Shown here: in pieces, positions 1 through 30,468 of the stretch | How the letters are laid out: the number at the start of each line of letters is the position of its first letter | Numbering within the stretch: position 1 is the stretch's first letter | IMG/VR virus record: IMGVR_UViG_3300045988_182483 | Location: 1-35,437 of that record | Length of the DNA: 35,437 nucleotides | Reading direction: 5' to 3' (one strand) | Source of the DNA: a virus | Position numbers and translations under genes: made by a program | The notes under the pieces: generated by a model | Database searches by the model: none | What the model saw: only the letters and a program-made list of their open reading frames with translations | What the model was told of the DNA's origin: nothing

Positions 1-119
1 ACGGAGAGGGAGGCCGTAGTGGTGCCGACGATAGCGCCCCCATTTTTGCCCCCATATTAAGAACATTTACACCACAGTTTTATATGTTCAATATCATACA
101 TTTTTCGCATAGCATACTC
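1..119. repeat. Left copy of exact 119-bp terminal direct repeat
   Basis: acggagagggaggccgtagtgg...ttttcgcatagcatactc is identical to 35319-35437. Confidence 0.97.
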
Positions 120-263
120 CTCTTTTTTGCCTTTGTTATAGCCCTGCACCGGGCGCAAATACCCCACAACGCGGCTGTAAACCTCACACTTGGTTCCATG
201 GCAGTTAGCTTTCGCTTTTTTCAGTTCGGCAATTTCTTTTAGTAGTTCTGCTTTTGTTTTCAT
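57..263 (-). CDS. 68-aa stand-alone protein resembling the C-terminal glycyl-radical domain of anaerobic ribonucleotide reductase NrdD
   Basis: CHGTKCEVYSRVVGYLRPVQGYNKGKKEEYAMRK matches the remembered NrdD C-terminal pattern (Cys pair, then R-V-x-G-Y, then N-x-G-K-x-x-E-x-x-x-R). SD AGAGGA upstream. Start coupled (ATGA) to the upstream micro-ORF. Confidence 0.6.
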   Translation of the reverse strand: MKTKAELLKEIAELKKAKANCHGTKCEVYSRVVGYLRPVQGYNKGKKEEYAMRKMYDIEHIKLWCKCS

Positions 264-3344: not shown

Positions 3345-3345
3345 A

Positions 3346-3921
3346 CTATGCTCCTTTCGTCAATTTCAAATTTTTTATTTCTTCCCAATCTGCCCATACT
3401 TTCAGCTTTCCACAAGTTAAACTTGGCAGTTCTTCCGCGCTGTTGTGCAGGGTAAAGTTTTTACCGTTTACCGTCAGCACCATTTGTTGGCCGTCTTGTT
3501 TTAACAAAACGCTATTCCAACCGGCAAGCAGCGTGCCGGCAGGAAGGTTCTTCCACCTAGGCACAGTGTCCCAAGCAAAAGCAAACGCCAAGGTGGCGGC
3601 TTCGCTTTTTACACGCACCACTCCCGCCAGTTCAAACAAATAGTGCGTACCGGCATTTTGCGGCTTTACGGCAAACTGTATTTCAAACGGGGCACGCCCC
3701 AACGCGCTTAAGCTTAAATGGTCACACACCACTTGCGGTGTATTTCCAAAGCCCCAAAAATAGTTTTTTCCAAGGCGCAAAAACACGTTCTTTTTGGCCA
3801 ACAGATATTTGTTATAGTCCGGCATCAGCATTACCAATTTATTATTAAAATAAGCGGTAGTAAATTCCTTGCCGTCCAAATAGGCTTTTACATATTTTTT
3901 CCCATTCAAAAAAATCGTCAT
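3346..3921 (-). CDS. Tail-fibre-associated protein, possible lectin/jelly-roll fold
   Basis: 191 aa between two fibre genes. Beta-rich sequence. Function inferred from position only. Confidence 0.4.
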   Translation of the reverse strand: MTIFLNGKKYVKAYLDGKEFTTAYFNNKLVMLMPDYNKYLLAKKNVFLRLGKNYFWGFGNTPQVVCDHLSLSALGRAPFEIQFAVKPQNAGTHYLFELAGVVRVKSEAATLAFAFAWDTVPRWKNLPAGTLLAGWNSVLLKQDGQQMVLTVNGKNFTLHNSAEELPSLTCGKLKVWADWEEIKNLKLTKGA

Positions 3922-3930
3922 AATAGGCCC

Positions 3931-5601
3931 TTATTTTATTTCTTCTTCAATTAAAGAAAGTTCGCGGGTGGGTTTTTCCACCAAGGCATCCCAAGCGTCG
4001 CGCGTATAAGTTTGCACGGTAATAAACCCGCCGTTGTGTTTTATCATTCCCTCAATGGCATTGGCGGCCACCACCCACGGGTAGTTATACTGGTTATCTT
4101 CTTCATGCAACCCCAAACACGGCACAAACCACATAGTGACCGCATCTTTATAACCGTTCAATGCGTAGGTATCATTTTTTTTCACACGCAGGAAGGTAGC
4201 ATTGGCGGAGCCGTTATTGTGTTTGCTTTTGTTGCTTTTGTTTAATGGGAAAGTGACTCCGTTGATAGTAATTTGTCCGTATCCTTCCCCATAGTTCCAG
4301 CTATATACCAACAAATAGCCGTCTTGGCTAACCGTACCGCTTCTGCCCGCGTCTTTGGTTTTACTCCAATCCGGCGCCGTAGCCGTCACCAAAGCCCCGC
4401 TGGAAGCGGTATGTCTTTTTAATGTCGGCAAACGCAAGTTTCCATCTGCCTCGTCGTCTTTTATATAAAAGGGCACTTCCCCGTTTTTTGCCAACAGCTC
4501 CTCGTACTCTGCTTTTGTTTTTTGTAATTCCGGATGCGCGGCCACAAATTTGTATAAAGCCGGCCAATAAGTTTTAGCGTCTTCTACCCGTTGGCCGGTC
4601 CATGCGGGCAAGGCCCCCGCATTATCCGCCGGCAACGCGCTTTGGCTTTGGTAAACCTCGCCAATTTGTTTTGGCACAAAAGTTTCCGCGCTTGCTTTAG
4701 CCGCCTCGGCACTTTTTGCGCAGGCCGCGGCGCTCTGCTGGGCCTGTTGGGCCGCCATAGCGGCTTGTTGTGCAACTTCGCCCCCCGGCATAGTCAACGT
4801 GTCCGAGAACATAAACACCAATTGGTCCCCTGCTGTTAGCGGGGTATTAAACCGCACCGTATCGCCGTAATCATCCCCGCTTTGGGCCAGTTCTTGGCTT
4901 ACTACTTCCACATAATCTTTATCCGCGCCTTGGCGCAGCAGTTTACCGTTTACAAATACTTTTAAGGTACACCCGTCTGCCTTATAGGATTCGTTCAATT
5001 TTACCTCTGTCAAACCGCCGTCATAGTTTAGGCTTGGGGTTCCCGCGTCGTAATACTCCACGGTGGCATATAACTTTTCGGCCTGTTCGTAGGCTTCCAC
5101 GGCGGCCTTAATAGCCTTTTGCGCTTCTTCACGGGTTATATCTGTCTGCTTCAAAATATCACCGTATAACGCGCGCATATCACTTATTAAAGTTTCCACG
5201 GTGGGGTTAGCCTCGTCCGTCACTCCTACGGCCACGGTGCGCGTTAAACGCTCGCATACTTCTTGCGCAATCATGGTTAGTTTATCTAACGATTTTTCCA
5301 AACTCTCTTTATGCAGTACGGCCTGTTGGATAAGGTCATTTTCTTGGGTGGGTAATGTTTGGCGGTATAAAGTTAGGCGCGCACCTTGGGGCAAAGGGGC
5401 TTCTTCTCCCTTTGGATAAATCAAAAATGCACGGCTGGTATCTATTTGTGTTTTATCACTCACATCCGTTTCCGCGCCGTTTTGGTCGGTCAGCAGGGCG
5501 CGCACATCCCCCACGCTTAAAAACGGGAACGGTATTTCAAAACGGCGGTTTTGTCCGTCACCTTGGTATATTACTTTTGTTTTAGTGGTAGAGATACTCA
5601 T
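3931..5601 (-). CDS. Tail fibre/tailspike with T7 gp17-like N-terminal tail-attachment domain
   Basis: N-terminus KVIYQGDGQNRRFEIPFPFLSVGDVRALL...ARLTLYRQTLPTQ is the usual podovirus fibre adaptor pattern. Ala/Gln-rich coiled segment. SD AAGGAG. Confidence 0.7.
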   Translation of the reverse strand: MSISTTKTKVIYQGDGQNRRFEIPFPFLSVGDVRALLTDQNGAETDVSDKTQIDTSRAFLIYPKGEEAPLPQGARLTLYRQTLPTQENDLIQQAVLHKESLEKSLDKLTMIAQEVCERLTRTVAVGVTDEANPTVETLISDMRALYGDILKQTDITREEAQKAIKAAVEAYEQAEKLYATVEYYDAGTPSLNYDGGLTEVKLNESYKADGCTLKVFVNGKLLRQGADKDYVEVVSQELAQSGDDYGDTVRFNTPLTAGDQLVFMFSDTLTMPGGEVAQQAAMAAQQAQQSAAACAKSAEAAKASAETFVPKQIGEVYQSQSALPADNAGALPAWTGQRVEDAKTYWPALYKFVAAHPELQKTKAEYEELLAKNGEVPFYIKDDEADGNLRLPTLKRHTASSGALVTATAPDWSKTKDAGRSGTVSQDGYLLVYSWNYGEGYGQITINGVTFPLNKSNKSKHNNGSANATFLRVKKNDTYALNGYKDAVTMWFVPCLGLHEEDNQYNYPWVVAANAIEGMIKHNGGFITVQTYTRDAWDALVEKPTRELSLIEEEIK

Positions 5602-5613: not shown

Positions 5614-8600
5614 TTATTCTTTGGTATTCGTGGCAATATGGGCGCGGTTTTCGGTGTAGCCCAGCATTTGCAAAAATCCGCGCATTGGGTTTTCGCCGCC
5701 GGCAATATCGCCGGCGCCGGTATAAAACCCCTTGGCATATTTGGTAGGAAGCCCGCCGATTAACTGCCCGCTTTCCACTAGCATATTCAAAACATCCTCG
5801 GCGGCCAAATCGTCCTTTACGGCCGTTTGTCCCATTTTGAACAGGTCACTTACTACCGGCAGTTCCGGGCGTTCCATACGCACTTTATGGTCAAACATCT
5901 TTGCTTTAGCCACTTCTGCGGCCGTTCCCACGGCCATATCCAGCACAGGCAAACAACCGGCCATTTGCACAAACGGGCTAAAAAACAGTTCGTCTGCCAG
6001 AATTTCGTCCGCATCATCGTCGTCATAGTACCAAGCTAAAATTCCCAGCGTCGTCAGGGCAGAGTACATCCACGAGTTAAACAACCCGTAAATAGCCACC
6101 ACCTTGGCCAGTTGCGCGCGGGAAATTTCCCCGCGTTGGTATTCATAAATTGCGTCGGCAATTTTGCGTGCGTATTGGGCGGGTGTATTCTTAAAGGCAA
6201 ACAGGCCGCGCACGATAAAGTTCATATCCCGCGCCTGCAAGGTAGATAAACTGCTGCGCGTATTGGCCTGTTGGCTACGCAGGGTGGACTTTCTAAACTC
6301 GGCAAACGCTTCCTTTTTACTCATTCCCTTGGTCTGCATTAAATAGTCCACATACGGCTTGCCGCCAAACATAATAGCGCCCACGTCGCCTAAGCGCGTA
6401 TTAATTGTTAGTAAGTCTGTAAAGCGCAGGAATTTGCCCCGTGCCGTAAGGGCGTTGGCATCGGCGGTGGCGCGGGCCAAAGCCTCGTTCATAGAACCGC
6501 TTTCATACCGCGCTTTCAAATACGGGTCGCCAGACATCATAAATTCCACCGTTTCTTTGGGGTGCATAATGGCCTTGGTAAATCCGCTTACCCATTGGGT
6601 GGCCGGCATATTTTCCGCATAGTTTATAGAGGAAATCAACTGCTTTACGGCAATCGTCGGTTTTAAGGCAATCGCGCCCTTTACATAGTTGTTAGTCAGC
6701 CAATCGCCCAGTTTGTCCATTTCGTAATTAAGCCGCGGCTTGCTTACGCTAAACTGGTCAATGAGTTCCAGCATACGCTTATAGCAGTCCTCGCCCACCT
6801 GCTCAATAATCGCGGGTTTTAACACCGGGCTTTTGAACACGCGGATAATTTGGTTTAGCTTTTCCGCCTTAAAAGTGTAATCGGCCGCGCGGTCAATATG
6901 GGTAAACAAAATGCCAAAGGGGTTTTCCAGTTTCATTTGCACAAACGCGCTGCTCGCGCGCATTTTGGTAAAAGACGGGTTTTTGCTCATAGCGGCCGCG
7001 GCGTTCAAAAAGTCCAGTTCACTTTCCACGCGCTCCGTTTTACTGGGGAAATAATTTTCCACGCGGGGCAAATCGTAGCCGCGTTCTTTTACAAACACGC
7101 TGTTAATTTGCGCGTAGGTTTTTTCCGCCTCTTTTTGTAAAAAATCCCCCAAGGCCCTGTCCTGCTTATCTAGCAGGGCAAACATATCGTTTAATTGGCC
7201 CCCGTACTGGTTTAATAAGCGGTCCATTAAGTTATCGTTCTTGGCATAGATATAGGCCGTAATAATTTGCAGTTTGTTCAGTTCCTCGGGGAAGGCTTCG
7301 CCCGTGCGCTTTATGGCGCCGGGGTTGGTGTTTTTATCCACCAAGGCATAGTTGGTAAACGTATATTTTTCGTTGCGTAAGGCGTTCATTTTGTTTTGTA
7401 CCTCGCGGTTGCTGCCTAGGCCGTAAATACGCTTTACGCCGTCCATAATTTCCGTTCTGCGCTGCCAAGTGTAGGTAATGGTATCGGCTTCCAAATTAAG
7501 CATGGAGTATTTTTCCTTGGTTTCTTTATCTGTCACCATATCCAAGAAACTTTCCCAGTTGGCTATCCAACTGGCGTACATCTGCTTTAACTTGCCGGCC
7601 TTTTTATTCTTTTTGATAGCGCCCAACACTTCGCTCTTATCCTGCTCGGTGCGAAAGTCTTTAATCATTTTTTCCAAAATTTTAGCCTCTCTGCCGGCTT
7701 TACGCAGGGAGTGAATATCCTCGTAGGCTTGCTTAAACAGTTGGCAGGTCACGTCCTTGCGCGCATAAGCCTGTATGGAAAGCATTTCGTTAATAATTCT
7801 ATCAATCAGGCTGTTGGGTTTATCTACAAGCATACGGTTTTGCAATTCGTCGGCGGCGCTTTGCGGCCCCAAATGTGCTACGCGCCGTAATTCTTCCAAG
7901 GCGCTCATAGTCGTTGGGTCCGTCATGGCGCGGCGGAAATTGCCCCGGCGGTCAAACAAGTTCATATTCAAAAGGGCTTGGATTTTTTTATTCATATACT
8001 GCTTGTAATTGTCCTCTTGAATTTCGCGCGTTTGTTTTATCAGTTCGTCTATCTCGTGTTTCCAAAGTGAGCGTTGGCGGCTAGCGCTGCGCGCGTACTT
8101 GGCCACCAAGCGGCGCACTTGGTCGCTTTCCAACCCGCCTTGTTTACGCAGTACGCTTTCCATAGCCCGCATTAGGGCGGCTTCCAGTTTGGGCTCCGCC
8201 TCTTTTAACACCTTTTCGGCCGCGGTGCGCCGGTGGGCCACTTCTTCGTCTGTCAGATTTTCATAAAGTTTCAGTTGCCCGCTGGAGGCCATATTCAGCA
8301 CGCGCCAAGCCTGCTGTATCTTTTCGTCCACATGTCCGATAGATTCGCTATAAGCGCGCAAAAGTTCGGCGCGCACGTTGTCCCAGTTGGTATTGGGCAA
8401 ATCGGTGCGGCGGCGTTCCTCCTGCCCCTCGTTCGTGCGGTCATAGGCGTCTTCCAAAAAGTCCAACGCGCCCGCGGCCGCGGTTTGTATTTCTTCAAAA
8501 GTTTTGGCCTTTTCCAACTGTTTAATTAAACCGTCTTTGCCCTCAATTTGCCGCTTGTTGAGTTCGGTAATTAAGTGGCGCTTAATCTTGCGGGCCGCAT

Positions 8601-11600
8601 CCAAGGTAGCGGCAGAAGCCTGTTCTTTATTTTGCACGGTTTGGCTCTTGTTATCCAATCTTTCGGCCAAGCGGTTTAGTTCCCCAAGCCGCAAGGAAAA
8701 GTCCGCCAAGTCGCGCTTTTCCACTACGCGGTAGCCTTTTTCTTCCAGTTCCAAAATGGCCTTTAAGGTTTTTTTGGCTTCGCGCGGGTCCCCCCACGCT
8801 TCACGCATAGTATCCATCAGGCTTTTGTAGTTTTCAAAATCGGCTATTTGCTTTTCCGTACCAATGGGATAAATAACCTCTCCGTTTAATGCGCGGTCTA
8901 TCAGGTCGTAAGCCTGTTGGTTGATACGGTCCTGCTCCTCGTAGGTGCGGCCCTCGGCCTCGGTTAGATAGCCGTGGTCGGCCAGCCAACGGGCGGGGTC
9001 GTCGCCAATGCCGCCTTTTTTGTTAAATACGCGGGCATTTTTATAGGCTTCTTTATCAATTTGTCCGGCGTTGGCGTATTCGGCCCCATAACGGCGCAAA
9101 TCTTTAAGCAAGTGGTTCGTGGGCAGTTTGGGCGCGGGCGCGTCCAACGTGCTGACCAAGTCTTTAATTTGCTCCAAGGTAAAATCACCCCGCGGGCTAC
9201 CTTGGCGGATGTTGTTAATTTGTTGTTTTAATTTATCCACCTTACCCGTAAACAGTTTACTGTCCACGCGGCGGGCTTCTTTGGCCAAGAGTTTATCAAA
9301 GAACTCTTGCACCTCGGGCGAAAGGTCCACGCCGGTTAAAGCACCGTAAATATCACGCAACCATGCGGCAAATTTTTCAAACAGGCTTTTATAGGCCGCA
9401 TTGGGGGCTTTGCCGTTGTGAAAGTATTTTTCGGCCTTGGTGGCAAAGTTTTCCCTAAACCCGCGGCGTACAAATTGGGCGGTCGTGTCGTTTTCGTCCA
9501 AAGAATCATTAAAGGCAAGCCGTTTGATGTATTCGTCCCCGCCACGCTCTTTAATGGTTTGTAAAACGCGGGCGCGGGCGGTATCGTTTAGCAGTTTGGT
9601 TTTGCCCAAATACTCCATTACAAAGGGCGCGCTGTCCGCGTGGATTTGCCGCAAGTCCTGCATCATTTGCAAAAATTCGGGCTCCGTGCTTACTTTTTCC
9701 GCCCGGTAAAGGTCACGCTCCCAAATGTGGAAATACTCGTGAACGGCGGTAAATTCGTTGGCCGACGTGCTGGCTACAATAATGGCGCGGTTGCTGTCTT
9801 GGGCAAAAACCACCTTACCCAAAAAGTCCGGCTGGGCCACATTTTGGCCAAAGTTAAACGAAGTATCCCCCTCGTCACTTTCTGCGTAAAGCGTATATCC
9901 ACGCGGGGTTTCGGCCGTTTTTAATGTGTTAAAAAAGCGGTCAAACGCGGCCGCAATAGCGGGCATTTCCGTATCGGTCGGGTACGGGAAACGTTCTTTC
10001 CCGCCTAAGTATGCTTCCGGATTTACAATGTTGGCCAAGTAATCGTTAGAGTGGCCCTCTTGCTTAGCCTTATAAACCAAATAACTTTCAAAGGCGCGGG
10101 CGGTCATTTCCGTGCGGGTACTCCAATAGGGCTTTGAACGCAATTTATCCAAGTTTACACTACGGTTGTAAAACGTGTCCGTAATGGCTTTTAATACGCC
10201 TTGGTAAGCCTCTTTCATTTCCGGGCGCAAGGCGCTGTTAGCCTTGGGGTTTTCCGAGGTCATTTCATTTTGCCCGTCCTGTCTGCTAAAATAGTTATCC
10301 AAGGCGTGCCACCATTCGTGGCCCAAACTGCCCGCACCGTTCTTTTTATTTAAGTTGATAACCACATGGTCGCGTTCGTAATGGGCCAGTTCATTGGCTT
10401 TGCCGCGCGCGCCAAAGGCCAGCCCCAGTGTGCCGTCCAAAGATACGGCCCGTGCCGGTATGCGGATAATATCTGCCATATCCAGCAGCGCATCATAGGC
10501 ATTATTTAAGTCCTGCGCGCGGCGTTCCTGCTCCACCCAGTTGCCAAACTGTACGCCGCGGAAGCCAAACTCTTGGCTAAACCGCTCCGGCGTAATCACC
10601 GTTCCGGCGGGGCGGTATTCCTTGCCCACGCGCGGCGCGTTGGTATCGCGGCGGACGGGGTAAATTTTGCGTTTTTCGGCCAATAGCGCTTCTAAATGCG
10701 CTTGGTTTTTAGTCAAAAAATCAAACGCATCTTTTACGCGCTCAAAGCCACCCTTTAAGTCAATAAATTTGCCCGTGGCAATTTTCTTGCCAATGATAAT
10801 TTCGCCCGTATCGCGCCTTTGATAGACGTCCAATTTGGTAGGTGCTTTGGCGGGCGCGGCCGTTTCGGTCAGCATTTTGCGGGCCAGCGCCACCATTTCG
10901 GCCCTGTTTTGCGAACCGGCCACCCGTTTATATCCGCGTTCCAATTCATAGATAGTAGTAGGCGTATTAAAGCGTGTGTCGCCGTACATTAGATAATCAC
11001 TACTGCGCAACGTATAGTCCTTGGCCTTAGTAAATGCCGGATAGCCGATTTCCAAATAAAAGGCCACGCGGTTGTGGATAGCATCCGTTTTGTCTGTTTC
11101 TTTGAACAGGTTTACCATTTCCGGATGTTGCAACACTTGGTTGGCCGTTTCGCGTGCGGCTTTTAAGCCTTCTGCCCAACGGGCCGCACGGCCCAACAGT
11201 TGCGGTTTGGCGGGTATAGAATCGCGCAAAGCCTTTACAATAGCCAGTTGCTCGGTAGTAATGCCCTTGGCTATGGCCGCTTCATAATTCGGCTCCGGGA
11301 AGTATTGGGATAGCGTAATTTTGCGCACGTCGGCAGGCAGTTCACTCGTCATAGCGGCGCGGTACTTGCCCCACATATCCTTGCGGGCCCCTAAAATCTT
11401 TTCGCCAAAATCCTCTATGCGCTCGGGCTTGCCCGTGGGGGTAAAGGGCGGCAAGTCTTGCTTTAATTCTTCTTCACTAAACAGCCCGTCCGCCGCTTCT
11501 TTGAGTTCGCTGTCCTCTTGCGTAAGTTCGGTCCGTTCCTCCGCGTTGGCTTGCGTATCAAACAAACTCTGCTGTTTATCAAACAGGTTTTGTTGGATAT

Positions 11601-14547
11601 TAAATAAATTTTCCTGCAACAGTTCAGACGAGCCGGAGCCTTTCCCCGAAACATTGTTATTATATTTAGCTATTTTGCGCTTGACAAACCGCACTAAATC
11701 ACCTATACTATTAGTGTACCGCTGTTGGCTGGGGTTATTGATAACGCCAGAGTTACCAGCGGTATATTTATTTTCTTCCGTCTGCAAATCATATAAGTGT
11801 AAATCAGACAAAACTCCGTCTTGTTTGCTCACAAACATAGCATAATATGTTTTTCCACGGTAATTAAAAATATTTCCATAGCGTAGAATAGTCCGGCCAG
11901 GAACATTTTTTACATCTTTGTGCGAAAGAATAAGTTGTGCTGTTTCAAACACATTAAGGGCTTGTGCAACTTGCTCGCCTACATCGTGGTATAACTGCCG
12001 GCGTTCTTCGGTTTGCAGATTATGCTTATTTGCATAATCTTTGGCCGCCGTTATGCTGGTATTTTGCATTTTTTTTACAGAACTGCGACTGAGCAAAAAT
12101 ATTTTTCCGTCCTTTTTAATAGTTATTTGCTCTTTCTTGCCAAAAACCGAATCAATAAGTTGTTTTTTCCCATCAGCCGTATTTTGGGCCATTGGTAAAA
12201 AATCACTCCTTAATTCCACGGGCTTAAATGGTTTAAGGTTCGGATTCATTTCCAACAGGATAGCCTCGCCAGTTTGCTGGTTGTGAATTTCGGTAATTTC
12301 TTCCGGATTTTGCCGGATATTAAATAAATTTTCCTGCAACAGTTCAGACGGATTTTTTGTCTTTCCGCTTTCTTGGGCCTTGACAACATCCTCTTTATTA
12401 GTTATCCTATCTGTACTGGAGCCCTGCCTCAAAGTGCTTAAATGCGCGGAGGCGGGGTTCCTTTTTACACGTACGTTATACAGGTCTAACAAATTTTTAT
12501 CCTGCCCTTTTACGCGTTCCGTAGCTAATTCCACTAAGAAAGGCTCTTTCCCAATTTTTACCAAGGCTTGGAAATACACATATTCTTCTACATTAGCCTT
12601 ATGGGCCAATGTTTTTTTACTGGTATTATGGGACGCGTCCACCTCACCCTTTCTGTCCGTTTTTTGGGCCACATTAACAATTTTTTCCAACGTGGTCAGG
12701 GCGGTTTGGTGGCGTTTTAATTGGCCCCATTTTAACTGGATATTGGAGTTTTTAATATGCAGTTTATTTTCTTTTGTAATTTGTATTTGCAAGGGCGGGG
12801 TTGCCGTATCCATAGCAGAGCCGATAAGGGTGTTCAAGGCAAATTCCACTTTTTCGGCGCGCTGGTCTGCCGGCAATTTGGCAATGTCAGCAAACGGGTC
12901 CGTTAAATCTACCACATTTTTATTTATGCTTTCCTGCAACAAAAAATCCTTTTCTGTTAGCCCCGATTCCGCCAGTTTGCGGTCAAATTCCGCATCGGCG
13001 GCCGCCTTTGCTTGCGCTTTGCGGGCTTGCTGTTCCTCGTATTCGCGCTTCCATTGTTCGTGCTGGGCGGCCACGGCATCCTGTACGGCTTGGGTATTGT
13101 CTTGCACGGGGGCATTTTCAAAATCCACTTCCGTCATTTCAAACTCGCCCGGTTTCAGGCCCGCCACGTTCAGCACGCTGTTGGCGCGGCTTTGTTCCAA
13201 GTTGCCCATCAGTGCCGCGCTGGTCGTATCGTAGCCGGCGGCCAAGGCTTTTTGCTCCGTGCGTTCCGCCACCTCATACATTTTGCGGGTGGTTTCCCTG
13301 TCTGGGTTGCGCGCTTTATCAACGGACTCCTTAAACGCCTGCGCCCCTTGTTCCACATCCCCATGGGGGTAAACAAGCGGGCTGGTGGCGTTGGATAAAA
13401 TCTTATGCACTTGCGCGTTATTTTCAGGTGTGGCCGTTTCTTTGGCCATATTCAGGGCCATTTTATCCGCCGTTTCTTTTTTAATGCCTTTGTCTTGCAG
13501 TTTTTTGCTTGCACGGTTCACCAACGTAGCCACAGGTACCGCCGTTAAAGAGCCAATAACAAACGAATACCCAATGCCCTGTAAGGTGTCGGCCAATTCC
13601 TGCTGGCGGCCGCCAAAGTTTTGCATAATAATTTCTTCGGCGGTCTGTTGGGCGGCTTCTTCGCTGCCTTCACTCAAGGCCGATGCGGCAATACGCCCCA
13701 ATACGCCCGTTTTGGTTAAACTCTTAAACAGCATTTCCATACCCAGTAGTTCAATGCCGCCCTCAAATGCGCCGCCGGCAAGGCCGGCGCGTAATGCCCG
13801 CTCCGGAGCAACCCCATTTTGCAAGGCTTCTTCATAGTCCTGCTGTCCGGCCGTAGTGCCAAAGGCAATAGCGGCCGCCGCGGGGCTGCCCGTCAGCACC
13901 GTAAGGCCAATGGCCGCCATAAGGCTACCGCCAGCGCCAAATAAATCGTACAGGAAGCCGTCCCTTTCGTCCTTTGCAATGCCGGCCAGTTCGCGGAATT
14001 TGGCGTGGTTTTGGCTCATTACCAGTAAGGCATCCCGCCCCAATTTGCGGTTATGCTCATAATCTTGACGGATTTGGTTAAATTCCTGCTCTGCTTGTGC
14101 CGATAAAGCCTCCTTCCGGCTTTCCAAGTCTGGGGCTTGTTCATTTAACTGTTGGTATAATTCCCTGTATTTTTTGCGGGCCGCGCTGTCTTGCTTCATA
14201 TATTCGTATTCGTCTAATATGGCGCCGATACCCCCCGCCATAAGGCGCTCGCCGGCCTGCCACATAGACACGCCCGAATCGGCCACCGCGCGCAAAGGCG
14301 TTTTCCACCAGCGGTGTGTCGTATCGGGGATGCTTTCGTCCAAGCGTTTGAACGCAAAAAAATTATCTTTTGCCTTTTTGTAAAGCTCCGTTTGCAAGGC
14401 GTAGTTTACTTCTTCCGCCCGTTGCAACGTGGTATTTACAATTAACTGTTCTTCGGGCAAATAGATGCTTCTGCGCTCCGGTTCCAAGGCGGCAAACGGT
14501 GCGGGGGTGGTGAAAGGGGTTTTAGCGGTTTGTTCTTGTTCGTTCAT
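5614..14547 (-). CDS. Giant 2,977-aa internal-virion / polyvalent effector protein with two zincin (HExxH) modules
   Basis: Uninterrupted ORF. ATGA-coupled to the upstream gene. Motifs IEDFGEKILGARKD, FGFRGVQFGNWV, GSLGHEWWHALD, TAVHEYFHIWE, FRENFATKAEKYFHNGKAPN. Gly/Ala hydrophobic N-region and hydrophobic C-region. Confidence 0.8.
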   Translation of the reverse strand: MNEQEQTAKTPFTTPAPFAALEPERRSIYLPEEQLIVNTTLQRAEEVNYALQTELYKKAKDNFFAFKRLDESIPDTTHRWWKTPLRAVADSGVSMWQAGERLMAGGIGAILDEYEYMKQDSAARKKYRELYQQLNEQAPDLESRKEALSAQAEQEFNQIRQDYEHNRKLGRDALLVMSQNHAKFRELAGIAKDERDGFLYDLFGAGGSLMAAIGLTVLTGSPAAAAIAFGTTAGQQDYEEALQNGVAPERALRAGLAGGAFEGGIELLGMEMLFKSLTKTGVLGRIAASALSEGSEEAAQQTAEEIIMQNFGGRQQELADTLQGIGYSFVIGSLTAVPVATLVNRASKKLQDKGIKKETADKMALNMAKETATPENNAQVHKILSNATSPLVYPHGDVEQGAQAFKESVDKARNPDRETTRKMYEVAERTEQKALAAGYDTTSAALMGNLEQSRANSVLNVAGLKPGEFEMTEVDFENAPVQDNTQAVQDAVAAQHEQWKREYEEQQARKAQAKAAADAEFDRKLAESGLTEKDFLLQESINKNVVDLTDPFADIAKLPADQRAEKVEFALNTLIGSAMDTATPPLQIQITKENKLHIKNSNIQLKWGQLKRHQTALTTLEKIVNVAQKTDRKGEVDASHNTSKKTLAHKANVEEYVYFQALVKIGKEPFLVELATERVKGQDKNLLDLYNVRVKRNPASAHLSTLRQGSSTDRITNKEDVVKAQESGKTKNPSELLQENLFNIRQNPEEITEIHNQQTGEAILLEMNPNLKPFKPVELRSDFLPMAQNTADGKKQLIDSVFGKKEQITIKKDGKIFLLSRSSVKKMQNTSITAAKDYANKHNLQTEERRQLYHDVGEQVAQALNVFETAQLILSHKDVKNVPGRTILRYGNIFNYRGKTYYAMFVSKQDGVLSDLHLYDLQTEENKYTAGNSGVINNPSQQRYTNSIGDLVRFVKRKIAKYNNNVSGKGSGSSELLQENLFNIQQNLFDKQQSLFDTQANAEERTELTQEDSELKEAADGLFSEEELKQDLPPFTPTGKPERIEDFGEKILGARKDMWGKYRAAMTSELPADVRKITLSQYFPEPNYEAAIAKGITTEQLAIVKALRDSIPAKPQLLGRAARWAEGLKAARETANQVLQHPEMVNLFKETDKTDAIHNRVAFYLEIGYPAFTKAKDYTLRSSDYLMYGDTRFNTPTTIYELERGYKRVAGSQNRAEMVALARKMLTETAAPAKAPTKLDVYQRRDTGEIIIGKKIATGKFIDLKGGFERVKDAFDFLTKNQAHLEALLAEKRKIYPVRRDTNAPRVGKEYRPAGTVITPERFSQEFGFRGVQFGNWVEQERRAQDLNNAYDALLDMADIIRIPARAVSLDGTLGLAFGARGKANELAHYERDHVVINLNKKNGAGSLGHEWWHALDNYFSRQDGQNEMTSENPKANSALRPEMKEAYQGVLKAITDTFYNRSVNLDKLRSKPYWSTRTEMTARAFESYLVYKAKQEGHSNDYLANIVNPEAYLGGKERFPYPTDTEMPAIAAAFDRFFNTLKTAETPRGYTLYAESDEGDTSFNFGQNVAQPDFLGKVVFAQDSNRAIIVASTSANEFTAVHEYFHIWERDLYRAEKVSTEPEFLQMMQDLRQIHADSAPFVMEYLGKTKLLNDTARARVLQTIKERGGDEYIKRLAFNDSLDENDTTAQFVRRGFRENFATKAEKYFHNGKAPNAAYKSLFEKFAAWLRDIYGALTGVDLSPEVQEFFDKLLAKEARRVDSKLFTGKVDKLKQQINNIRQGSPRGDFTLEQIKDLVSTLDAPAPKLPTNHLLKDLRRYGAEYANAGQIDKEAYKNARVFNKKGGIGDDPARWLADHGYLTEAEGRTYEEQDRINQQAYDLIDRALNGEVIYPIGTEKQIADFENYKSLMDTMREAWGDPREAKKTLKAILELEEKGYRVVEKRDLADFSLRLGELNRLAERLDNKSQTVQNKEQASAATLDAARKIKRHLITELNKRQIEGKDGLIKQLEKAKTFEEIQTAAAGALDFLEDAYDRTNEGQEERRRTDLPNTNWDNVRAELLRAYSESIGHVDEKIQQAWRVLNMASSGQLKLYENLTDEEVAHRRTAAEKVLKEAEPKLEAALMRAMESVLRKQGGLESDQVRRLVAKYARSASRQRSLWKHEIDELIKQTREIQEDNYKQYMNKKIQALLNMNLFDRRGNFRRAMTDPTTMSALEELRRVAHLGPQSAADELQNRMLVDKPNSLIDRIINEMLSIQAYARKDVTCQLFKQAYEDIHSLRKAGREAKILEKMIKDFRTEQDKSEVLGAIKKNKKAGKLKQMYASWIANWESFLDMVTDKETKEKYSMLNLEADTITYTWQRRTEIMDGVKRIYGLGSNREVQNKMNALRNEKYTFTNYALVDKNTNPGAIKRTGEAFPEELNKLQIITAYIYAKNDNLMDRLLNQYGGQLNDMFALLDKQDRALGDFLQKEAEKTYAQINSVFVKERGYDLPRVENYFPSKTERVESELDFLNAAAAMSKNPSFTKMRASSAFVQMKLENPFGILFTHIDRAADYTFKAEKLNQIIRVFKSPVLKPAIIEQVGEDCYKRMLELIDQFSVSKPRLNYEMDKLGDWLTNNYVKGAIALKPTIAVKQLISSINYAENMPATQWVSGFTKAIMHPKETVEFMMSGDPYLKARYESGSMNEALARATADANALTARGKFLRFTDLLTINTRLGDVGAIMFGGKPYVDYLMQTKGMSKKEAFAEFRKSTLRSQQANTRSSLSTLQARDMNFIVRGLFAFKNTPAQYARKIADAIYEYQRGEISRAQLAKVVAIYGLFNSWMYSALTTLGILAWYYDDDDADEILADELFFSPFVQMAGCLPVLDMAVGTAAEVAKAKMFDHKVRMERPELPVVSDLFKMGQTAVKDDLAAEDVLNMLVESGQLIGGLPTKYAKGFYTGAGDIAGGENPMRGFLQMLGYTENRAHIATNTKE
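9727..9741 (-). other. HExxH motif 2 (HEYFH) inside the giant ORF
   Basis: Reverse complement reads CAC GAG TAT TTC CAC. Confidence 0.9.
10306..10320 (-). other. HExxH motif 1 (HEWWH) inside the giant ORF
   Basis: Reverse complement reads CAC GAA TGG TGG CAC. Confidence 0.9.
11595..11630. repeat. 36-bp perfect direct repeat, copy A (encodes SELLQENLFNI)
   Basis: ggatattaaataaattttcctgcaacagttcagacg is identical to 12315-12350. Confidence 0.95.
12315..12350. repeat. 36-bp perfect direct repeat, copy B, exactly 720 bp from copy A
   Basis: Identical to 11595-11630. The offset is 240 codons, in frame. Confidence 0.95.
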
Positions 14548-16388
14548 AAAAGTTGCCTGTGTAATACATTGTTGTTCTTATCGCGTTTTACTAAATACGC
14601 GGTGTCGTTTATTTCTTCATAGCGGTAGCCGGTTATATTGTTTTGCAAGGCTATTCCCAAATTAGGGTTTGGTTTAATACCGTAGGACTTAAATGTATTT
14701 TCTCCCACCTGTACGTCCATTACGTCATTACGGTTTATGGTATATCGGTTATCCATATATTGTTTGGCTACCTCCTGTACGGCTTGTTTGGCCAAATTTA
14801 GGGTGTCAGGGTCTTCGGCAAGTAAATTGATGTTTTTTCTTTGCAAAGCCCAAACGGTTTGCTCAATAATAAAACTTTTTTCTTCGGGTAAGAAAAACCC
14901 GCCTATGTTGTAGTCTTCGTAGTTCTTTACTTCGCGTTCTTTTAGTAAAGAAATCCCCTCTACTTCCATGGGGGCCAAACGGCTGGTTGAACCCGCTTCC
15001 CCGCGCACTTTGCCGCCATTAGAAAGCAAATTAGCCTGCCGGACGACCTCGCCATAAACCGTATCGTTGGGTTTGGCTTGCATAGTGCCCAGCGCTTGGC
15101 GCAGTTGGGCCAAATGTTGCTTGGCGGTTTGCGTATCGTTCGTGTTAAAGGCATGGTGCTTAATGGCTCCGTCCAAAGCGGCAATGGTAGCCAACACGGT
15201 TTGCGGGTTGTTCATATCCTTATTGCCTATTTTGGGCGCCTTACCGCTTTTTATTTCCCATTCATACGCGGCAAATTCGCGCTCCACATTTTGCCAGTTC
15301 AAACGTTTGATTTGTCCGGCGCGGGTGTCTGGGCTGTCTAACAAATTATTTTGCACCCATTTGGCATATTCCAAAAGCCCCTTGGCATCCAACGGGCCAA
15401 AGTTTTGGCTGTATTGGGTAAGCGCACTGGCGGGGTTGCGCAAAAGTTGCACAATTTCTTCCTGCAAGGCTTCCGGCTCTTTTTGTGCCATAGCCAAAGC
15501 ACGCTCATAAAGCGGGGCAACCTGTGCGTGGGTAGCCCCTTGCACTTTGGTTTGTTCGGCCTTGTTAATAAGGTTATTTAAGCGGTTGTAATCGTCCGGC
15601 AGTAAGTCTTTCTTTACGCCGTCAAGCACCTGCCTAGCCGCGCGCACATTGGCGTTTATAATGGCCCCGTTTACCGCGGCCGATACGTTGTCGCTCGCCT
15701 GCATATAACGCGCCAGTTGTAATTCCTCGGCGGATAGCCCGCGGCCTTGGCCGTTTTCGTCCGCAATTTTATAGACACTATCCAAATGTGCGCGCATATC
15801 CTGCGGGGTGGAAATCCCACCGGCCATACCGGCCGCGCTCTTATAAAATGCCTGCGCGGCCTTATCGGCACTTTGGCGTTCCTCGTTTAGTTGGTGTACT
15901 ATCGTGCGGTTATAACTCTCCTCAAAACTGCGGGCCAAGGTTTGGCGCACAAAAGCGGCTTCCTCGGGCGTTTTGGCCATAGCGGTATATTTACTTACCA
16001 GTTGGCCGCCTTGGGTATAATAATCGCGGGCGGTGCCCTCGGCATCTTTTAATTTGCGCCCCAAAAAACCGGCGCTTACCGTTTTTCCGTTTTCGTCTAA
16101 TTTTCCGTTTAACAGCTCATTATTTTCCCGTTCAAACCCCAATAAAATTTCACTTTGGCGCGCCACACTTTCACGCTTTTGGCGGCGTTGTTCGGCTAAG
16201 GCTAATTGTTCGTGCAAGGTTTTTTCCCCATGGGCCCACGGGTCACCTGCCTGCGCCAGTTGTGCGCCTATACGGGCCACATTTTGCGCTCCGTTGTCAA
16301 ATAGTTCCGGCTCCGCCGCACGCACCGTATGGCCGGCCGCGCGGGTGGCGTGTAATACGGCTTGGTTTTTATAAACGGGTACTTGCAT
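14544..16388 (-). CDS. Internal virion (core/ejection) protein, 614 aa
   Basis: Position between portal-proximal small proteins and the giant ORF. Helical Ala/Gln/Glu-rich sequence. No enzymatic motif recognised. Confidence 0.5.
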   Translation of the reverse strand: MQVPVYKNQAVLHATRAAGHTVRAAEPELFDNGAQNVARIGAQLAQAGDPWAHGEKTLHEQLALAEQRRQKRESVARQSEILLGFERENNELLNGKLDENGKTVSAGFLGRKLKDAEGTARDYYTQGGQLVSKYTAMAKTPEEAAFVRQTLARSFEESYNRTIVHQLNEERQSADKAAQAFYKSAAGMAGGISTPQDMRAHLDSVYKIADENGQGRGLSAEELQLARYMQASDNVSAAVNGAIINANVRAARQVLDGVKKDLLPDDYNRLNNLINKAEQTKVQGATHAQVAPLYERALAMAQKEPEALQEEIVQLLRNPASALTQYSQNFGPLDAKGLLEYAKWVQNNLLDSPDTRAGQIKRLNWQNVEREFAAYEWEIKSGKAPKIGNKDMNNPQTVLATIAALDGAIKHHAFNTNDTQTAKQHLAQLRQALGTMQAKPNDTVYGEVVRQANLLSNGGKVRGEAGSTSRLAPMEVEGISLLKEREVKNYEDYNIGGFFLPEEKSFIIEQTVWALQRKNINLLAEDPDTLNLAKQAVQEVAKQYMDNRYTINRNDVMDVQVGENTFKSYGIKPNPNLGIALQNNITGYRYEEINDTAYLVKRDKNNNVLHRQLL

Positions 16389-16826: not shown

Positions 16827-17390
16827 TTAAGCTGTTTGGTTGCGTTTCTTTTCGTCTTGCAAATTATCAAAAATCAACCCGCCTGTTTGCACCGCACCCG
16901 TTAAAAGGGTGCCCAACATCTTAAACTTGGCATTGTAGCGCGCCTGTCTGGCGGCAATATCAGCCAATTTGGCTTGGCTTCTTAAACTGGCCGATTCCAA
17001 CGCGCCCTGCTTATTTTGCTCAAAGGCTTGGGTTTCCGCTTGATAGCGCAATAAATTTTCGTCTTCTTTTAGGGCACGCTCACTACTGGAAAGCACCGCC
17101 TGCGCACTGGCGCTGGATAAATCCATGCCACTTGCCGCCATAGCGGCCTTGGCAGAACCTTCCGTTGCCTCACCCTGTTGGCGCAACTGGTGTATTTGGT
17201 TGGCGGCGCTTTCGTTAATATAAGCCGTCTGGCGTGCGGTTTGTATGTCATTTATATCGGCATTGGCAAGGTTGGTTTCTTTAAGCGCTTTGTAATAGGC
17301 GCGCTTTTGTTTTCCTGCCAAATACTGGCTTGCCACGCCGGAAAACGTATCCATTGTCTGTTGCATTACTTTTATTGTTGGGAACGCCAT
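16827..17390 (-). CDS. Internal virion protein, 187 aa
   Basis: SD AGGAGA. Helical sequence with AAMAASGMDLSSASAQ segment. Position downstream of portal. Confidence 0.45.
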   Translation of the reverse strand: MAFPTIKVMQQTMDTFSGVASQYLAGKQKRAYYKALKETNLANADINDIQTARQTAYINESAANQIHQLRQQGEATEGSAKAAMAASGMDLSSASAQAVLSSSERALKEDENLLRYQAETQAFEQNKQGALESASLRSQAKLADIAARQARYNAKFKMLGTLLTGAVQTGGLIFDNLQDEKKRNQTA

Positions 17391-17420: not shown

Positions 17421-17735
17421 TTATTGCAATTCTTTTTCTTCCGTGCAGTCTTGCTGCCAAAGGTGCTTTTCTTGCGCACCGGACGGCTTACTTTTAACTT
17501 CTTCGTTCCATTCCCGCCGCATTTGCACAAACGCATCCGGGCTTGCGGCCATAATCAAATCAAACAAATACAAACCCATGGAACGCTGCCCCGCGTGAAA
17601 ACTGGTTGCGTGCGGGTTGTTTGGCACAAACCCATGGCTAAAGGTTTGGCATGTTTGCATTAAATCAAACAGAAACAGGCGCATTTCTCTGTTTTTTAAT
17701 AAATCTCTTACCCGTCTAATTAATTTTTTGTTCAT
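17421..17735 (-). CDS. Portal-adjacent small protein, 104 aa, unknown function
   Basis: SD AAAGGAG. Conserved position only. Confidence 0.4.
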   Translation of the reverse strand: MNKKLIRRVRDLLKNREMRLFLFDLMQTCQTFSHGFVPNNPHATSFHAGQRSMGLYLFDLIMAASPDAFVQMRREWNEEVKSKPSGAQEKHLWQQDCTEEKELQ

Positions 17736-17769
17736 AATCTCCTTTCTCGGCGGGGTTTACCCCGCCGTT

Positions 17770-19407
17770 TTAATACCCCCCTCTAAAATCAAGTCCGGCG
17801 GTCTGTTTGTCGGCGGCGGCCAATTTTTGGCTTATATCTGCCGCGCTTTGGGCCTGCGCAATTTCGGCGGCTGTTTGTTGGGCCTGCGCCCGCTCCTGCC
17901 GGACGGCGGATACTTTATCTTCGTCCAACATCATTTCTGTAAGCGAAAGTTTTTCCGCCACCAACCGGCCCAGCTTGTCCGTATCTAACAAGTCCAAAAT
18001 TTCGGGTTTAATTTGGGCATACTGGCCAAAACTTCCCACCAACATATCCATAGAACGCGTGCCGGAAGCCTTTTGCGCCTCATGGAAAATGGAGTTAAAC
18101 GTAATTTTTAATTCTTCCCCCTGCAAACTTTCGGGCGGTATTAAATCGTCATAAAGGCCCTGTTCGGCATTATAGGCATCGGCCAATTCAATTAAGGGTT
18201 TGTGGCATTCCTCTACCAACCGTTCCAATACAGGCCCCATAATGGCAAGGCGTTCCTGCACCTTTTCGGCCACTTCGGTAGCGGTTTGGTTGGTTTTGGG
18301 GTCGGAAAGCATGGTAGCCATCACATCAACAAAAAATTGGCTTTTTAGGGTTTGTTTTACTTTGCTGACTAACAGCTCGGCCTTGCCCAAATCCATCTGT
18401 GCCTGAAAAAGCGGCTTGAGTCCGTCCGTCACGCTTTGGCTTTGCCACAACACCGCACCGGGGCGCAAGTTAATTTCGCTCTTAAATGCGCCGGCGGTGG
18501 CCAGTAGCGGCGGTTTAATACCCATTTCTACGGCCAGGTATTCGTCCGCCGTCACGCGTTGCAGGCTTTTTACCGCGCCCAAGGCCACCCAACCGGGGCC
18601 CATACCCCAAACCGCGTTGTGGTGTTTCAAATCCCACCGCGGGCAAATTACAGGGAAGCGGTCATACCCGCTTTCCCGCAAATATTCATTTACTCCGCTG
18701 GTCCAATACACAGAGCGGAAGGCTTTGTTCTTATCGTCCAAGGCACCCAGTTTTCTGTTTCTATTCGGCTCAATCAGTTGATACACGGCAATGCGCTCAT
18801 TGGCGGCGCCGTCTTTTTCGGCACGGTCGCGTATATGTTGGGGTACGCGCTGGCCAAACGCGCTTACCATTTCACGCGGGGTAAGCCAATGGGTACAGCC
18901 AAAAGTATCTATTTTGCCCGTTTCACCCACCCCCAAATAAGTTTCCCCAATGGTAAAAGCAATCGTACGCATCACATTTACGGGGTCTTTTTCTACCAAA
19001 AAAACATAAGTCCCCACCGTAGGCAGTTCCATATACATTTTGAAAAGCGTTAAATATACGCCGCTTCTGTGTAGGGTATTTTCAATGCGGGAGCGCCGCT
19101 TTTTTAAGTATTCTGCTTCCTCGGGTGTTTCCCCCCACACGCCTTTATCCGTCCCTAATGAAAACCACTCTCTGGACGGGTTTGTCATGCCGCTCATCAT
19201 ACCGGCCGCCAACCACACAATATAAGTGTTTGGGTCCGCATCCAACAATTTCATATAATCCAGTGTAATTTTATCACTCGGTTTTTGGTTAAAACTGCCG
19301 CAAGTGGGCAAAAAGTGCGTGCAAATATCTTTCCAAACATCATGGTAGCGCGCGCTTTCCTGTTTAATGCTTTCAAAACGTTGTTTCGTTCGGTTATCAA
19401 TGTTCAT
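17770..19407 (-). CDS. Portal protein, T7 gp8-like head-to-tail connector (start moved to MNIDNRTKQ)
   Basis: RYHDVWKDICTHFLP and LAAGMMSGMTNPSREWFSL resemble the connector-family N-terminal signature. ATG at 19407 with AAGGAAAA upstream, 14 nt after the nozzle stop. Confidence 0.75.
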   Translation of the reverse strand: MNIDNRTKQRFESIKQESARYHDVWKDICTHFLPTCGSFNQKPSDKITLDYMKLLDADPNTYIVWLAAGMMSGMTNPSREWFSLGTDKGVWGETPEEAEYLKKRRSRIENTLHRSGVYLTLFKMYMELPTVGTYVFLVEKDPVNVMRTIAFTIGETYLGVGETGKIDTFGCTHWLTPREMVSAFGQRVPQHIRDRAEKDGAANERIAVYQLIEPNRNRKLGALDDKNKAFRSVYWTSGVNEYLRESGYDRFPVICPRWDLKHHNAVWGMGPGWVALGAVKSLQRVTADEYLAVEMGIKPPLLATAGAFKSEINLRPGAVLWQSQSVTDGLKPLFQAQMDLGKAELLVSKVKQTLKSQFFVDVMATMLSDPKTNQTATEVAEKVQERLAIMGPVLERLVEECHKPLIELADAYNAEQGLYDDLIPPESLQGEELKITFNSIFHEAQKASGTRSMDMLVGSFGQYAQIKPEILDLLDTDKLGRLVAEKLSLTEMMLDEDKVSAVRQERAQAQQTAAEIAQAQSAADISQKLAAADKQTAGLDFRGGY

Positions 19408-27418: not shown

Positions 27419-27760
27419 CTAACGGGACAACGGGTATGCCGTCAGGCCCACACCCGCCATATTCAACACGGCGCATACTGTTGCAAAAGACGGGTTCCCC
27501 TTGGCCGTAAAGGACCGATACAGCCCCGTCCGGCTCACGTGTACCTTGCGGCTTACCTGCGTAGCCCCCAACGCGCGCACGACAATCCCAAGCGAAGTTT
27601 TCAGCAAGTCCATATTTTGGTTGTCGGCGTATTCCTGCAAGCACAGGCTCACATACGCGCGCAAATAGGCAGGGTCACTTTTTAACCGTGCCAGTTGCAC
27701 ATCATCAAATTTAGGAAATTTGGCCAAAACTTTCTTTTGGCGTGCGTTCAAATTAATCAT
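27419..27760 (-). CDS. HTH antitoxin (addiction-module antidote, HigA-like)
   Basis: LGATQVSRKVHVSRTGLYRSFTAKGNPSFATV is an XRE-type HTH. 8-nt overlap with the toxin gene. Confidence 0.75.
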   Translation of the reverse strand: MINLNARQKKVLAKFPKFDDVQLARLKSDPAYLRAYVSLCLQEYADNQNMDLLKTSLGIVVRALGATQVSRKVHVSRTGLYRSFTAKGNPSFATVCAVLNMAGVGLTAYPLSR

Positions 27761-28094
27761 TTTCTACCTCCCGCGTTAAAAAATCCTCTAAATAGGCCCG
27801 CGCCGCCTCAATATCGCGGCTTTGTTCCTTTTTGGTGTTTTTGGTTCCCCCGTTCAAAATCACCAAAATAACATCGTCACACTCGGCAAAATACACACGG
27901 TACCCTTTACCAAACGCCAGCCGTAATTCCAGTAGGCCATCCCCCAGCATTTTGTAGTCACCGTAATATCCGGCGGCGGCTTCGCGCAAGCGTTTATCAA
28001 TACGCGCCAGAGTAAAGGGGTCCTTTAATTTTTTTTGCCACTGCAAAAACGGACTCTTGCCGTTTTTCGTGGTGTAAAATACAATTTCTTTCAT
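27753..28094 (-). CDS. RelE/ParE-superfamily toxin (addiction-module killer, HigB-like)
   Basis: FYTTKNGKSPFLQWQKKL...GLLELRLAFGKGYRVYFAECDDVILVILNGGTKNTKKEQSRDIEAA is the typical killer-protein pattern. The toxin lies upstream of the antitoxin. Confidence 0.78.
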   Translation of the reverse strand: MKEIVFYTTKNGKSPFLQWQKKLKDPFTLARIDKRLREAAAGYYGDYKMLGDGLLELRLAFGKGYRVYFAECDDVILVILNGGTKNTKKEQSRDIEAARAYLEDFLTREVEND

Positions 28095-30460: not shown

Positions 30461-30468
30461 AAGTCCTC

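Follow-up and report, generated by a model that had tools for sequence, protein, structure and literature searches.

The giant gene of a viral genome from IMG/VR (record IMGVR_UViG_3300045988_182483, positions 1 to 35,437; this whole stretch of 35,437 nucleotides (nt) is called the window here) raises the question of why a perfect 36-nt direct repeat should occur twice inside one continuous coding sequence. The gene (5614-14547, minus strand) is an open reading frame (ORF) of 2977 amino acids (aa) that encodes a polyvalent protein, probably an internal virion or ejection protein. The 36-mer, GGATATTAAATAAATTTTCCTGCAACAGTTCAGACG, has two exact copies and no more, which lie 720 nt apart (11595-11630 and 12315-12350). 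Comparison with related phages provides a probable answer: the two repeat copies bound a variable slot for in-frame cassettes in the ejection protein, and this slot is remade by recombination at short shared junctions.

An earlier note, made from the sequence alone, had placed both copies in the same frame and read them as SELLQENLFNI, and exact matching together with the ORF translation confirmed it: the peptide is encoded in the minus-strand frame at aa 734-744 and 974-984. No further match was found with up to three mismatches, and none of 100 shuffles gave any match. The similarity extends beyond the 36-mer to 41 of 43 positions (11588-11630 versus 12308-12350, both minus strand). The copy lying upstream in the gene (12308-12350) encodes PSELLQENLFNIRQ (aa 733-746), and the downstream copy (11588-11630) encodes SSELLQENLFNIQQ (aa 973-986) and opens the conserved backbone segment ELLQENLFNIQQNLFDKQQSLFD. 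As the note had also pointed out, recombination between two in-frame copies 720 nt apart would remove exactly 240 codons and keep the frame. The first and last ~119 nt of the window are identical, which indicates a complete circular assembly of ~35.3 kb, and at least 24 contigs assembled from gut metagenomes, several with a length of ~35.4 kb, encode the identical 2977-aa protein. The two-copy arrangement is therefore not an assembly artefact, which the note had named as a possible refutation.

The two copies differ in their presumed age. The ELLQENLF linker is always present at the boundary between slot and backbone, and for this reason the downstream copy is regarded as ancestral and the upstream copy as the extra one. 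Even relatives whose backbones are only 64-67% identical retain the downstream linker as an amino-acid sequence, as do the proteins P0025, P0026 and P0028. All 11 codons are the same in the two window copies, including the four- and sixfold degenerate ones (Ser and three Leu codons), whereas a third linker-like motif, DFLLQESINKNV (aa 533-544; 12916-12951, minus strand), has a similar peptide but different DNA. Taken together, the identical codons and the different DNA of the third motif point to recent DNA-level copying or conversion rather than peptide constraint alone, and they indicate that the two window copies were recently homogenised at the DNA level.

The repeat separates two modules, and the peptides that the earlier note had quoted for them are both present in the translation. 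The core of module A (aa 583-694; 12466-12801, minus strand), which follows the third linker-like motif, is LPD3-like and carries the conserved motif D-x-x-H-N-T…H-K…LDLYNV. It is followed by an inter-module spacer, here called tail A (KRNPASAHLSTLRQGSSTDRITNKEDVVKAQESGKTKNP, aa 695-733; 12351-12465, minus strand), and then by the extra linker. Module B, in the allele B1, occupies the 229 aa between the linkers (aa 745-973; 11629-12315, minus strand) and is a divergent LPD3-family domain that behaves as the exchangeable cassette; its core corresponds to gene nt 2310-2831 (11717-12238, minus strand). The segment at 11631-11738 (minus strand), here called tail B, comprises the conserved C-terminal helix of module B (…DLVRFVKRKIAKYNN) and a Gly/Ser spacer, and it is assigned to module B because it is conserved across the module B family.

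The assignment of both modules to LPD3 depends on their relatives. Word-indexed protein searches gave very few matches to module B, and an exhaustive HMMER profile search was needed, which recovered 49 representative clusters from 1.84 billion proteins. Most of the members are segments of other proteins of 2.5-3.3 kaa, located anywhere from aa 600 to 2650, and the family has conserved ends (NPEEITEIHNQ.TGE… and …DLVRFVKRKIAKYN). Nine of 16 family members match Pfam LPD3 (best E = 2.6e-12), and an alternative allele found in relatives, B2, scores 33 bits; neither Pfam nor PHROG gives a match for the window copy, and its placement in LPD3 is by transitive homology only. Module A reaches 18.6 bits against Pfam LPD3 (PF18798, E = 0.0023), short of the gathering threshold of 27 bits, and its homologue P0015 (44% identical) carries PF18798. 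The earlier note had been reminded of LPD and PBECR modules; the LPD part of this impression holds for both modules, but the window protein has no match to the PBECR1-5 models or to PF18819 (MuF_C), and a PBECR-type domain is found instead in the slot of a relative, L007. Structure prediction, which the note had suggested, gave low-confidence models of modules A and B, with predicted local distance difference test (pLDDT) scores of 46 and 59. A fold search of PDB with these models returned nothing (best E = 0.37), a sequence-profile search of PDB had 0 matches, and a BFVD search had only weak matches, all to other polyvalent or LPD3 proteins. No function is known for LPD3 (PMC5512222), and a putative 'effector' role of the modules is suggested by their context only.

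The evidence that carries the slot interpretation comes from comparing related genomes at the same linker. The note had envisaged a plug-in cassette with repeat-defined linker boundaries, and the relatives display just such variation, holding another allele, a MuF_C/PBECR domain or nothing at this position. With L denoting the linker, the slot of the window reads A-L-B1-L. The contigs L006, L015 and L023 read A-L-B2-L, with a backbone that is 95.4% identical in nucleotides over gene nt 1-2309 and 2832-4992. In L006 the intervening nt 2310-2831 are exchanged for B2, a bona fide LPD3 domain 41% identical to B1; the same core is replaced by B2 in L015 and in L001, and the flanks stay 88-95% identical up to the blastn breakpoints. 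L006 possesses its own linker repeats of 43 nt, which are 91% identical and 708 nt apart. A third allele is found in P0028 (A-L-B3-L). L007 and L024 read X1-A-MuF_C-L on a backbone of ~92% nucleotide identity, and the MuF_C domain of L007 (75 bits) is bracketed by an in-frame 60-nt repeat, 82% identical and 660 nt apart, which corresponds to the second half of tail A. MuF_C belongs to the PBECR clade of predicted RNases (PMC5512222).

The empty slot is represented by L017 (X1-A-L; backbone 86-92% identical in nucleotides; open frame of 1310 aa). Its junction consists of the left flank of the first window copy, one linker and the right flank of the second window copy, with the frame intact; on alignment it has precisely the form expected of a 720-bp deletion or of an empty site, so that the comparison proposed by the earlier note yielded both presence and absence of the cassette. 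More distant relatives extend the range: P0026 reads ART-PolyVal-B-L, L025 reads ART-B2like-L (backbone 67% identical in amino acids), L026 reads B2like-L (64%), and P0023 carries MuF_C-B1like on a different backbone. In the relatives that do not have module A-L, the linker is found at the slot/backbone boundary only. A module of ~165 aa, X1 (…HIKEKHH…), precedes module A in L007 (about 1090-1600; frame-3 translation, aa 365-530) and in L017; it has no Pfam match and represents a further uncharacterised slot cassette.

Cassettes are thus replaced, present or absent at the same junctions in relatives whose flanks are 86-95% identical, and the cassette of each relative has its own in-frame flanking repeat, with spacings (720 nt in the window, 708 nt in L006 and 660 nt in L007) that are all multiples of three. 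The breakpoints are nested. Whole-module differences begin and end at the linker or at tail A, and allele swaps occur inside the conserved ends of a module; those of the B1/B2 swap (gene nt 2309/2832) lie in the conserved N- and C-terminal segments of the module, away from the 36-nt repeat.

A mechanism can be proposed on this basis. The slot lies just upstream of a conserved backbone that opens with the ELLQENLF linker and runs into the LPD5 and LPD1 domains, and among related phages it contains various combinations of the LPD3-like modules A, B1, B2 and B3, MuF_C/PBECR, ART-PolyVal and X1, or nothing. Homologous or unequal recombination would add, remove and rearrange modules at the linker, at tail A and at the conserved N- and C-terminal ends of the modules, and a crossover between the two window copies would produce an L017-type empty slot. 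The domains would be delivered into the host with the DNA and would act early in infection, and the diversity of cassettes would be the outcome of an arms race against the defences of the host, an idea put forward for polyvalent proteins generally.

The earlier note had also seen an AT-rich stretch at about 11.64-12.80 kb. The shift in base composition is real: at ~11.6-12.8 kb the GC content is 0.37-0.43 versus ~0.50 in the rest of the gene, and the GC content at third codon positions (GC3) is 0.35-0.44 versus 0.58-0.60 elsewhere in the gene. However, it is not limited to the bracketed cassette. The AT-rich stretch also spans the conserved module A, which is kept in the closest relatives L006, L007 and L017, and low GC is therefore no marker of the bracketed cassette alone. 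Cassettes are more AT-rich than backbones in all three phages examined, which suggests a common lower-GC module pool behind the slot cassettes.

The nature of the giant protein bears on the second part of the mechanism. Downstream of the slot it carries an LPD5 domain (aa 1189-1325; 10573-10983, minus strand; 97.8 bits against a Pfam cut-off of 27) with an HEWWH motif and an LPD1 domain (aa 1466-1545; 9913-10152, minus strand; 75.4 bits against a cut-off of 27) with an HEYFH motif. Because both exceed the Pfam cut-offs, the product is, judged by its domains, a polyvalent protein sensu Iyer et al. 2017 (PMC5512222). Polyvalent proteins combine 2-15 distinct conflict-associated domains, LPD types included, in one polypeptide (PMC5512222); here one chain holds LPD5, LPD1 and two LPD3-like modules, and it is flanked by virion genes (gp14-like, head-tail adaptor, tail, major head, terminase and tail-fibre-like). 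The ejection-protein gene block is defined by a T7 gp14-like internal virion protein (16827-17390, minus strand; 28 bits for Pfam PF24072, cut-off 27), and the genes follow the order portal, gp14-like, an ORF of 159 aa, an ORF of 614 aa, giant protein and tail-fibre-like gene. The giant protein occupies a T7 gp16-like position, which suggests an internal or ejection protein, and by analogy it is probably injected by the phage together with its DNA. A comparable protein, phi24B gp47 (2811 aa, with LPD5, LPD1, LPD38 and MuF-C), has been found in virions, and a role as an ejection protein was suggested for it (bioRxiv 10.64898/2026.04.10.717836).

Several points weigh against the recombining slot. 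Recombination is deduced from sequence comparison, with no event directly observed, and ordinary crossovers in long flanking homology would suffice for the transfer of cassettes between related phages, in which case the short repeat may be a by-product rather than an agent. The one invariant arrangement in at least 24 assemblies means that deletion is infrequent at the consensus level, no phage recombinase was found among the window ORFs scanned, and the event may have been either an insertion or a deletion. Packaging and injection are read from gene order and analogy alone, and no fold or function can be assigned to modules A and B from low-confidence models that have no PDB match.

A possible alternative, though clearly the less probable one, is that selection on the protein keeps the linker conserved, because it is processed or cleaved there or because it forms a flexible junction between independently acting domains. 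The DNA repeat would then be only a consequence, and cassette differences would come from ordinary recombination in long flanks; this is compatible with the slot interpretation. In its favor, ELLQENLF is kept at the slot/backbone boundary at a backbone identity of only 64-67%, and a hydrophobic-[YFL][YFL]-Q junction precedes modules in unrelated giant proteins (P0024-P0065), in forms such as NIYYQ, NIYFQ, TLFQ, VLFQ, IFYQ and ELLQ. The giant protein also has two HExxH domains and the phage encodes a prohead protease, and autoproteolytic release of polyvalent domains was proposed by Iyer et al. (PMC5512222). On the other hand, [FYL][FYL]Q is only ~1.6-fold enriched overall (96 observed versus 59.6 expected) and not significantly so in most proteins, and peptide constraint leaves the identity at all synonymous positions of the window copies unexplained. 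The junction peptide is thus a weakly supported candidate for a processing site. As a separate observation, the hydrophobic-[YFL][YFL]-Q motif occurs in the giant protein at aa 536, 736 and 976 and may be a common processing or junction signal.

The earlier note had also raised on/off variation of one domain, that is, a programmed, phase-variable switch in which frequent RecA-type deletion between the 36-nt repeats would yield populations in which some members have module B and others lack it. The repeat is perfect and in frame, an empty-slot relative exists, and a length of ~25-30 nt is generally taken as the minimum for efficient homologous recombination, which the 36-nt repeat just exceeds. 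We nevertheless consider a switch improbable. The backbone of L017 is 8-14% different and its slot has the extra module X1, so that it represents a separate lineage and not a switch variant; deletion would be irreversible without a donor; and the identical protein in at least 24 assemblies gives no sign of such variation within the population.

The same note had read module B as a possible recent duplicate, and a tandem duplication of module A would make the repeats its scars. Modules A and B are both LPD3-like, with the same motif order ([AS]HK … β-hairpin … LYD/N) and a similar order of predicted secondary structures. Direct comparison gave only a BLASTP E-value of 0.09 and an hhalign probability of 39%, a lack of similarity that effectively refutes the proposal; moreover, the nearest relatives of module B sit in other giant proteins and the unit between the repeats excludes module A. 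A recent duplication is accordingly very unlikely, and in their sequences the modules appear to be ancient LPD3-like paralogues. Almost no credence can be given to a chimeric or collapsed-repeat assembly, or to selfish DNA that inserted itself, for instance an intein or an intron encoding a homing endonuclease, for although an AT-rich insert between direct repeats looks like a mobile insertion, the identical assemblies are independent, the repeat is shorter than assembly k-mers, the reading frame is continuous, Pfam finds no intein, HNH or LAGLIDADG domain and Rfam no intron, and many other polyvalent proteins have homologous modules among their ordinary parts.

The recombining slot thus remains the preferred interpretation, and two further features, a hairpin in tail A and slot fragments in the host chromosome, are connected with its junctions. 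The hairpin is a conserved stem-loop of 13 bp and 4 bp followed by TTTTT (12418-12466, plus strand), antisense to the gene and inside the coding linker tail A. Its folding energy is -40.9 kcal/mol (z = -4.77, 0 of 200 shuffles). Over ten distinct copies 92.4% of the cells are paired and 7 of 17 pairs are changed on both sides (0 of 500 shuffles), compared with at most 57% pairing in slid controls; since the independent haplotypes are few, about four, the evidence for covariation is moderate. The paired changes show in the protein as coordinated AS…LR, TA…LP and AT…YG substitutions, and the apex has a conserved 17-nt motif, AAGTGCTTAAATGCGCG. A GC-rich stem-loop directly followed by a U-run, as in an intrinsic terminator, is present at 12418-12466 on the plus strand; a simple terminator scanner misses it because of the bulged 18-nt apical part. 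In the 11.3-13.0 kb region Rfam gave nothing credible, and tail B has no significant fold.

A copy of this element is found in the host sequence L013. There, an ORF with a WYL domain (15172-16089) is directly followed by a hairpin copy (16096-16179) in terminator orientation, in which only the hairpin is conserved. This copy is likely a terminator after the WYL-domain gene, and the phage linker thus appears to contain a host-type, terminator-like element; in the phage there is no plus-strand gene upstream of it. All host-chromosome fragments start at window 12466±1, which places their exact left boundary at the hairpin. Near-consensus sigma-70-like hexamer pairs (11 of 12 matches) were noticed at 11659-11709 (both strands, in tail B) and at 12380-12408 (plus strand). 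The plus-strand pair and the hairpin at 12418-12466 would delimit an antisense unit of ~750 nt over module B. Conserved codons (NSI, FVK and KYN) coincide with the hexamers, however, and the overall count of such pairs is not above chance.

The short contigs L001, L008-L011 and L014, which were retrieved with the modules, share a flank that maps to metagenome-assembled genomes of Elusimicrobiales (Ca. Avelusimicrobium faecicola; 403-kb contig), and on this ground the host is assigned to the Elusimicrobiales; L001 is an attR-type junction of a relative. Slot pieces lie ~400 nt downstream of each of two convergent host tRNA-Ser genes and differ between strains. The fragment of L013 (9439-9664 and 16121-16166) contains tail A and tail B only, that of L001 (629-1451) reads tail A-linker-B2-tail B, and a further one is located in L008 (160-935). 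L016 (8218-9412) has a 5'-truncated open frame with a complete MuF_C-like module, a linker and a B1-like module. L012 (817-2433) and L018 (3251-2065) consist of tandem units of module C-terminal ends plus tail B. L022 (6886-8364 and 14294-13966) has tandem duplicated units beside another prophage, and one of its tail A copies is 99% identical to the window. The MuF_C-like copies in the host arrays match the MuF_C model. Tail B forms the right-hand element of the fragments, and no clean microhomology was seen at the right-hand junction of the arrays.

In the simplest reading, the fragments are old prophage remnants that still recombine with incoming phages at junction sequences, comparable to the acquisition of DNA from defective prophages via relaxed homologous recombination (De Paepe et al. 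2014, PMC3945230). It is rather unlikely that the arrays are a silent cassette archive for prophage domain exchange, which could be likened to Rhs/CdiA orphan modules or antigenic-variation cassettes, or a host-side recombination trap or antisense element against the phage; exchange with an archive would mean that recombination between phages is not the sole source of slot diversity.

Other observations were made on the host contigs. The two tRNA-Ser genes of L013 (8967-9059 and 17894-17980) face each other across ~8.8 kb, and each is followed by a near-identical inverted repeat of 400-800 nt (9029-9409 versus 17590-17924); the enclosed segment, with a TPR-like ORF of 406 aa, the WYL regulator and others, may represent an island or may be able to invert. 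A second class of fragments (C-terminal half of module A, tail A and an ART-like start) lies between a type II CRISPR array and a tRNA-Arg gene. The CRISPR loci (L019 1812-7570, L020 163-7570 and L021 1351-7570) end ~350-460 nt before the polyvalent-gene fragment, and they encode a Cas9 of 1164 aa, Cas1 and Cas2 and contain 13-38 repeats of 36 nt (CAAATCTTACCTTACTTCTCGGTGCCTAATAGGAAC). Among the 43 unique spacers there is no match to the phage or to its relatives. L001-type contigs were also considered as CRISPR-like arrays with long spacers, and this was rejected, since their periodic repeats of 65-72 nt are unrelated to each other.

The phage as a whole is a temperate phage of gut Elusimicrobiales. 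Its integrase (33946-35127, plus strand; PHROG match) adjoins the core of the phage attachment site attP, ACGGAGAGGGAGG (window 1-13), which is the reverse complement of the 3' end of the host tRNA-Ser(gct/cga). Repressor-like genes, a terminase, a prohead protease, a major head protein, a head-tail adaptor and tail proteins were also recognised. No match to the giant gene region was found in the GenBank phage collection at the DNA or protein level. Integration into the host gene nrdD was the first guess and was rejected, because the NrdD-like ORF belongs to the phage and integration takes place at tRNA-Ser. This ORF of 68 aa (57-263, minus strand) adjoins attP and matches only the C-terminal glycyl-radical segment of NrdD (40.8 bits for Pfam NRDD, model positions 525-562 of 562). 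Possibly it serves as a 'spare part' in the manner of GrcA/YfiD. Elsewhere in the window, two adjacent ORFs of 113 aa (27419-28094, minus strand) match the PHROG 'transcriptional repressor' and 'toxin' and resemble a toxin-antitoxin module, and an ORF at 30002-30493 has a Lar-like restriction-alleviation domain.

The slot can be compared with several known systems. The polyvalent proteins described by Iyer et al. 2017, among which are the mosaic jhp1044 orthologues from Helicobacter prophages, have the same virion-gene setting and undergo domain gain, loss and rearrangement, and they share the giant chain with LPD5, LPD1 and LPD3-like domains, as well as the MuF_C/PBECR and ART-PolyVal domains seen here in relatives (PMC5512222). 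Their mosaicism, and for another polyvalent system the cassette analogy to polymorphic toxins, were already noted (PMC5512222). Unlike those cases, the present junctions are visible at the nucleotide level, with short in-frame repeats bracketing each cassette and an exact empty-site allele, the host belongs to the Elusimicrobiales, and slot fragments lie in the host chromosome beside attB. Rhs/CdiA polymorphic toxins similarly have a conserved short junction before variable modules, and the linker and tails here are 88-99% identical in nucleotides while the cores differ; the host arrays of 5'-truncated modules that retain junction homology resemble Rhs/CdiA orphan cassettes. In contrast to Rhs/CdiA, the variable modules are internal rather than C-terminal, no small immunity-type gene accompanies them, the truncated copies are in the host chromosome near the tRNA-Ser attachment site and not downstream of the main gene, and no toxin activity is known for LPD3. 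The gene order is like that of podovirus ejection proteins (T7 gp14-gp15-gp16 and phi24B gp47), where the likeness of the giant protein to gp16 is one of position, but T7 gp16 has no comparable accessory-domain slot. Domain shuffling is well documented in phage receptor-binding proteins and endolysins (PMC10684548); as in those proteins and in the exchanges with defective prophages (PMC3945230), recent mosaicism of phage proteins that are nearly identical elsewhere lies at domain boundaries with host prophage remnants as possible partners, whereas here an ejected polyvalent protein is concerned and the remnants are almost only slot junction pieces. The locus is a clear and unusually well-resolved new example of known polyvalent-protein mosaicism and not a new kind of system.

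The first-strike counter-defence domains of a phage are believed to reside in its polyvalent proteins, and the turnover of their domain sets has so far been known only as 'mosaicism'. This locus gives a nucleotide-resolution view of it, since phages that are nearly identical display short in-frame junction repeats, alternative alleles, an exact empty site and several states of slot occupancy. Cassette turnover thereby becomes experimentally testable, in terms of recombination rates, the fitness effects of cassettes and processing sites. A temperate phage, its attachment site and its host are also identified in the poorly studied gut Elusimicrobiales, and the unexplained chromosomal store of slot fragments might take part in cassette exchange.

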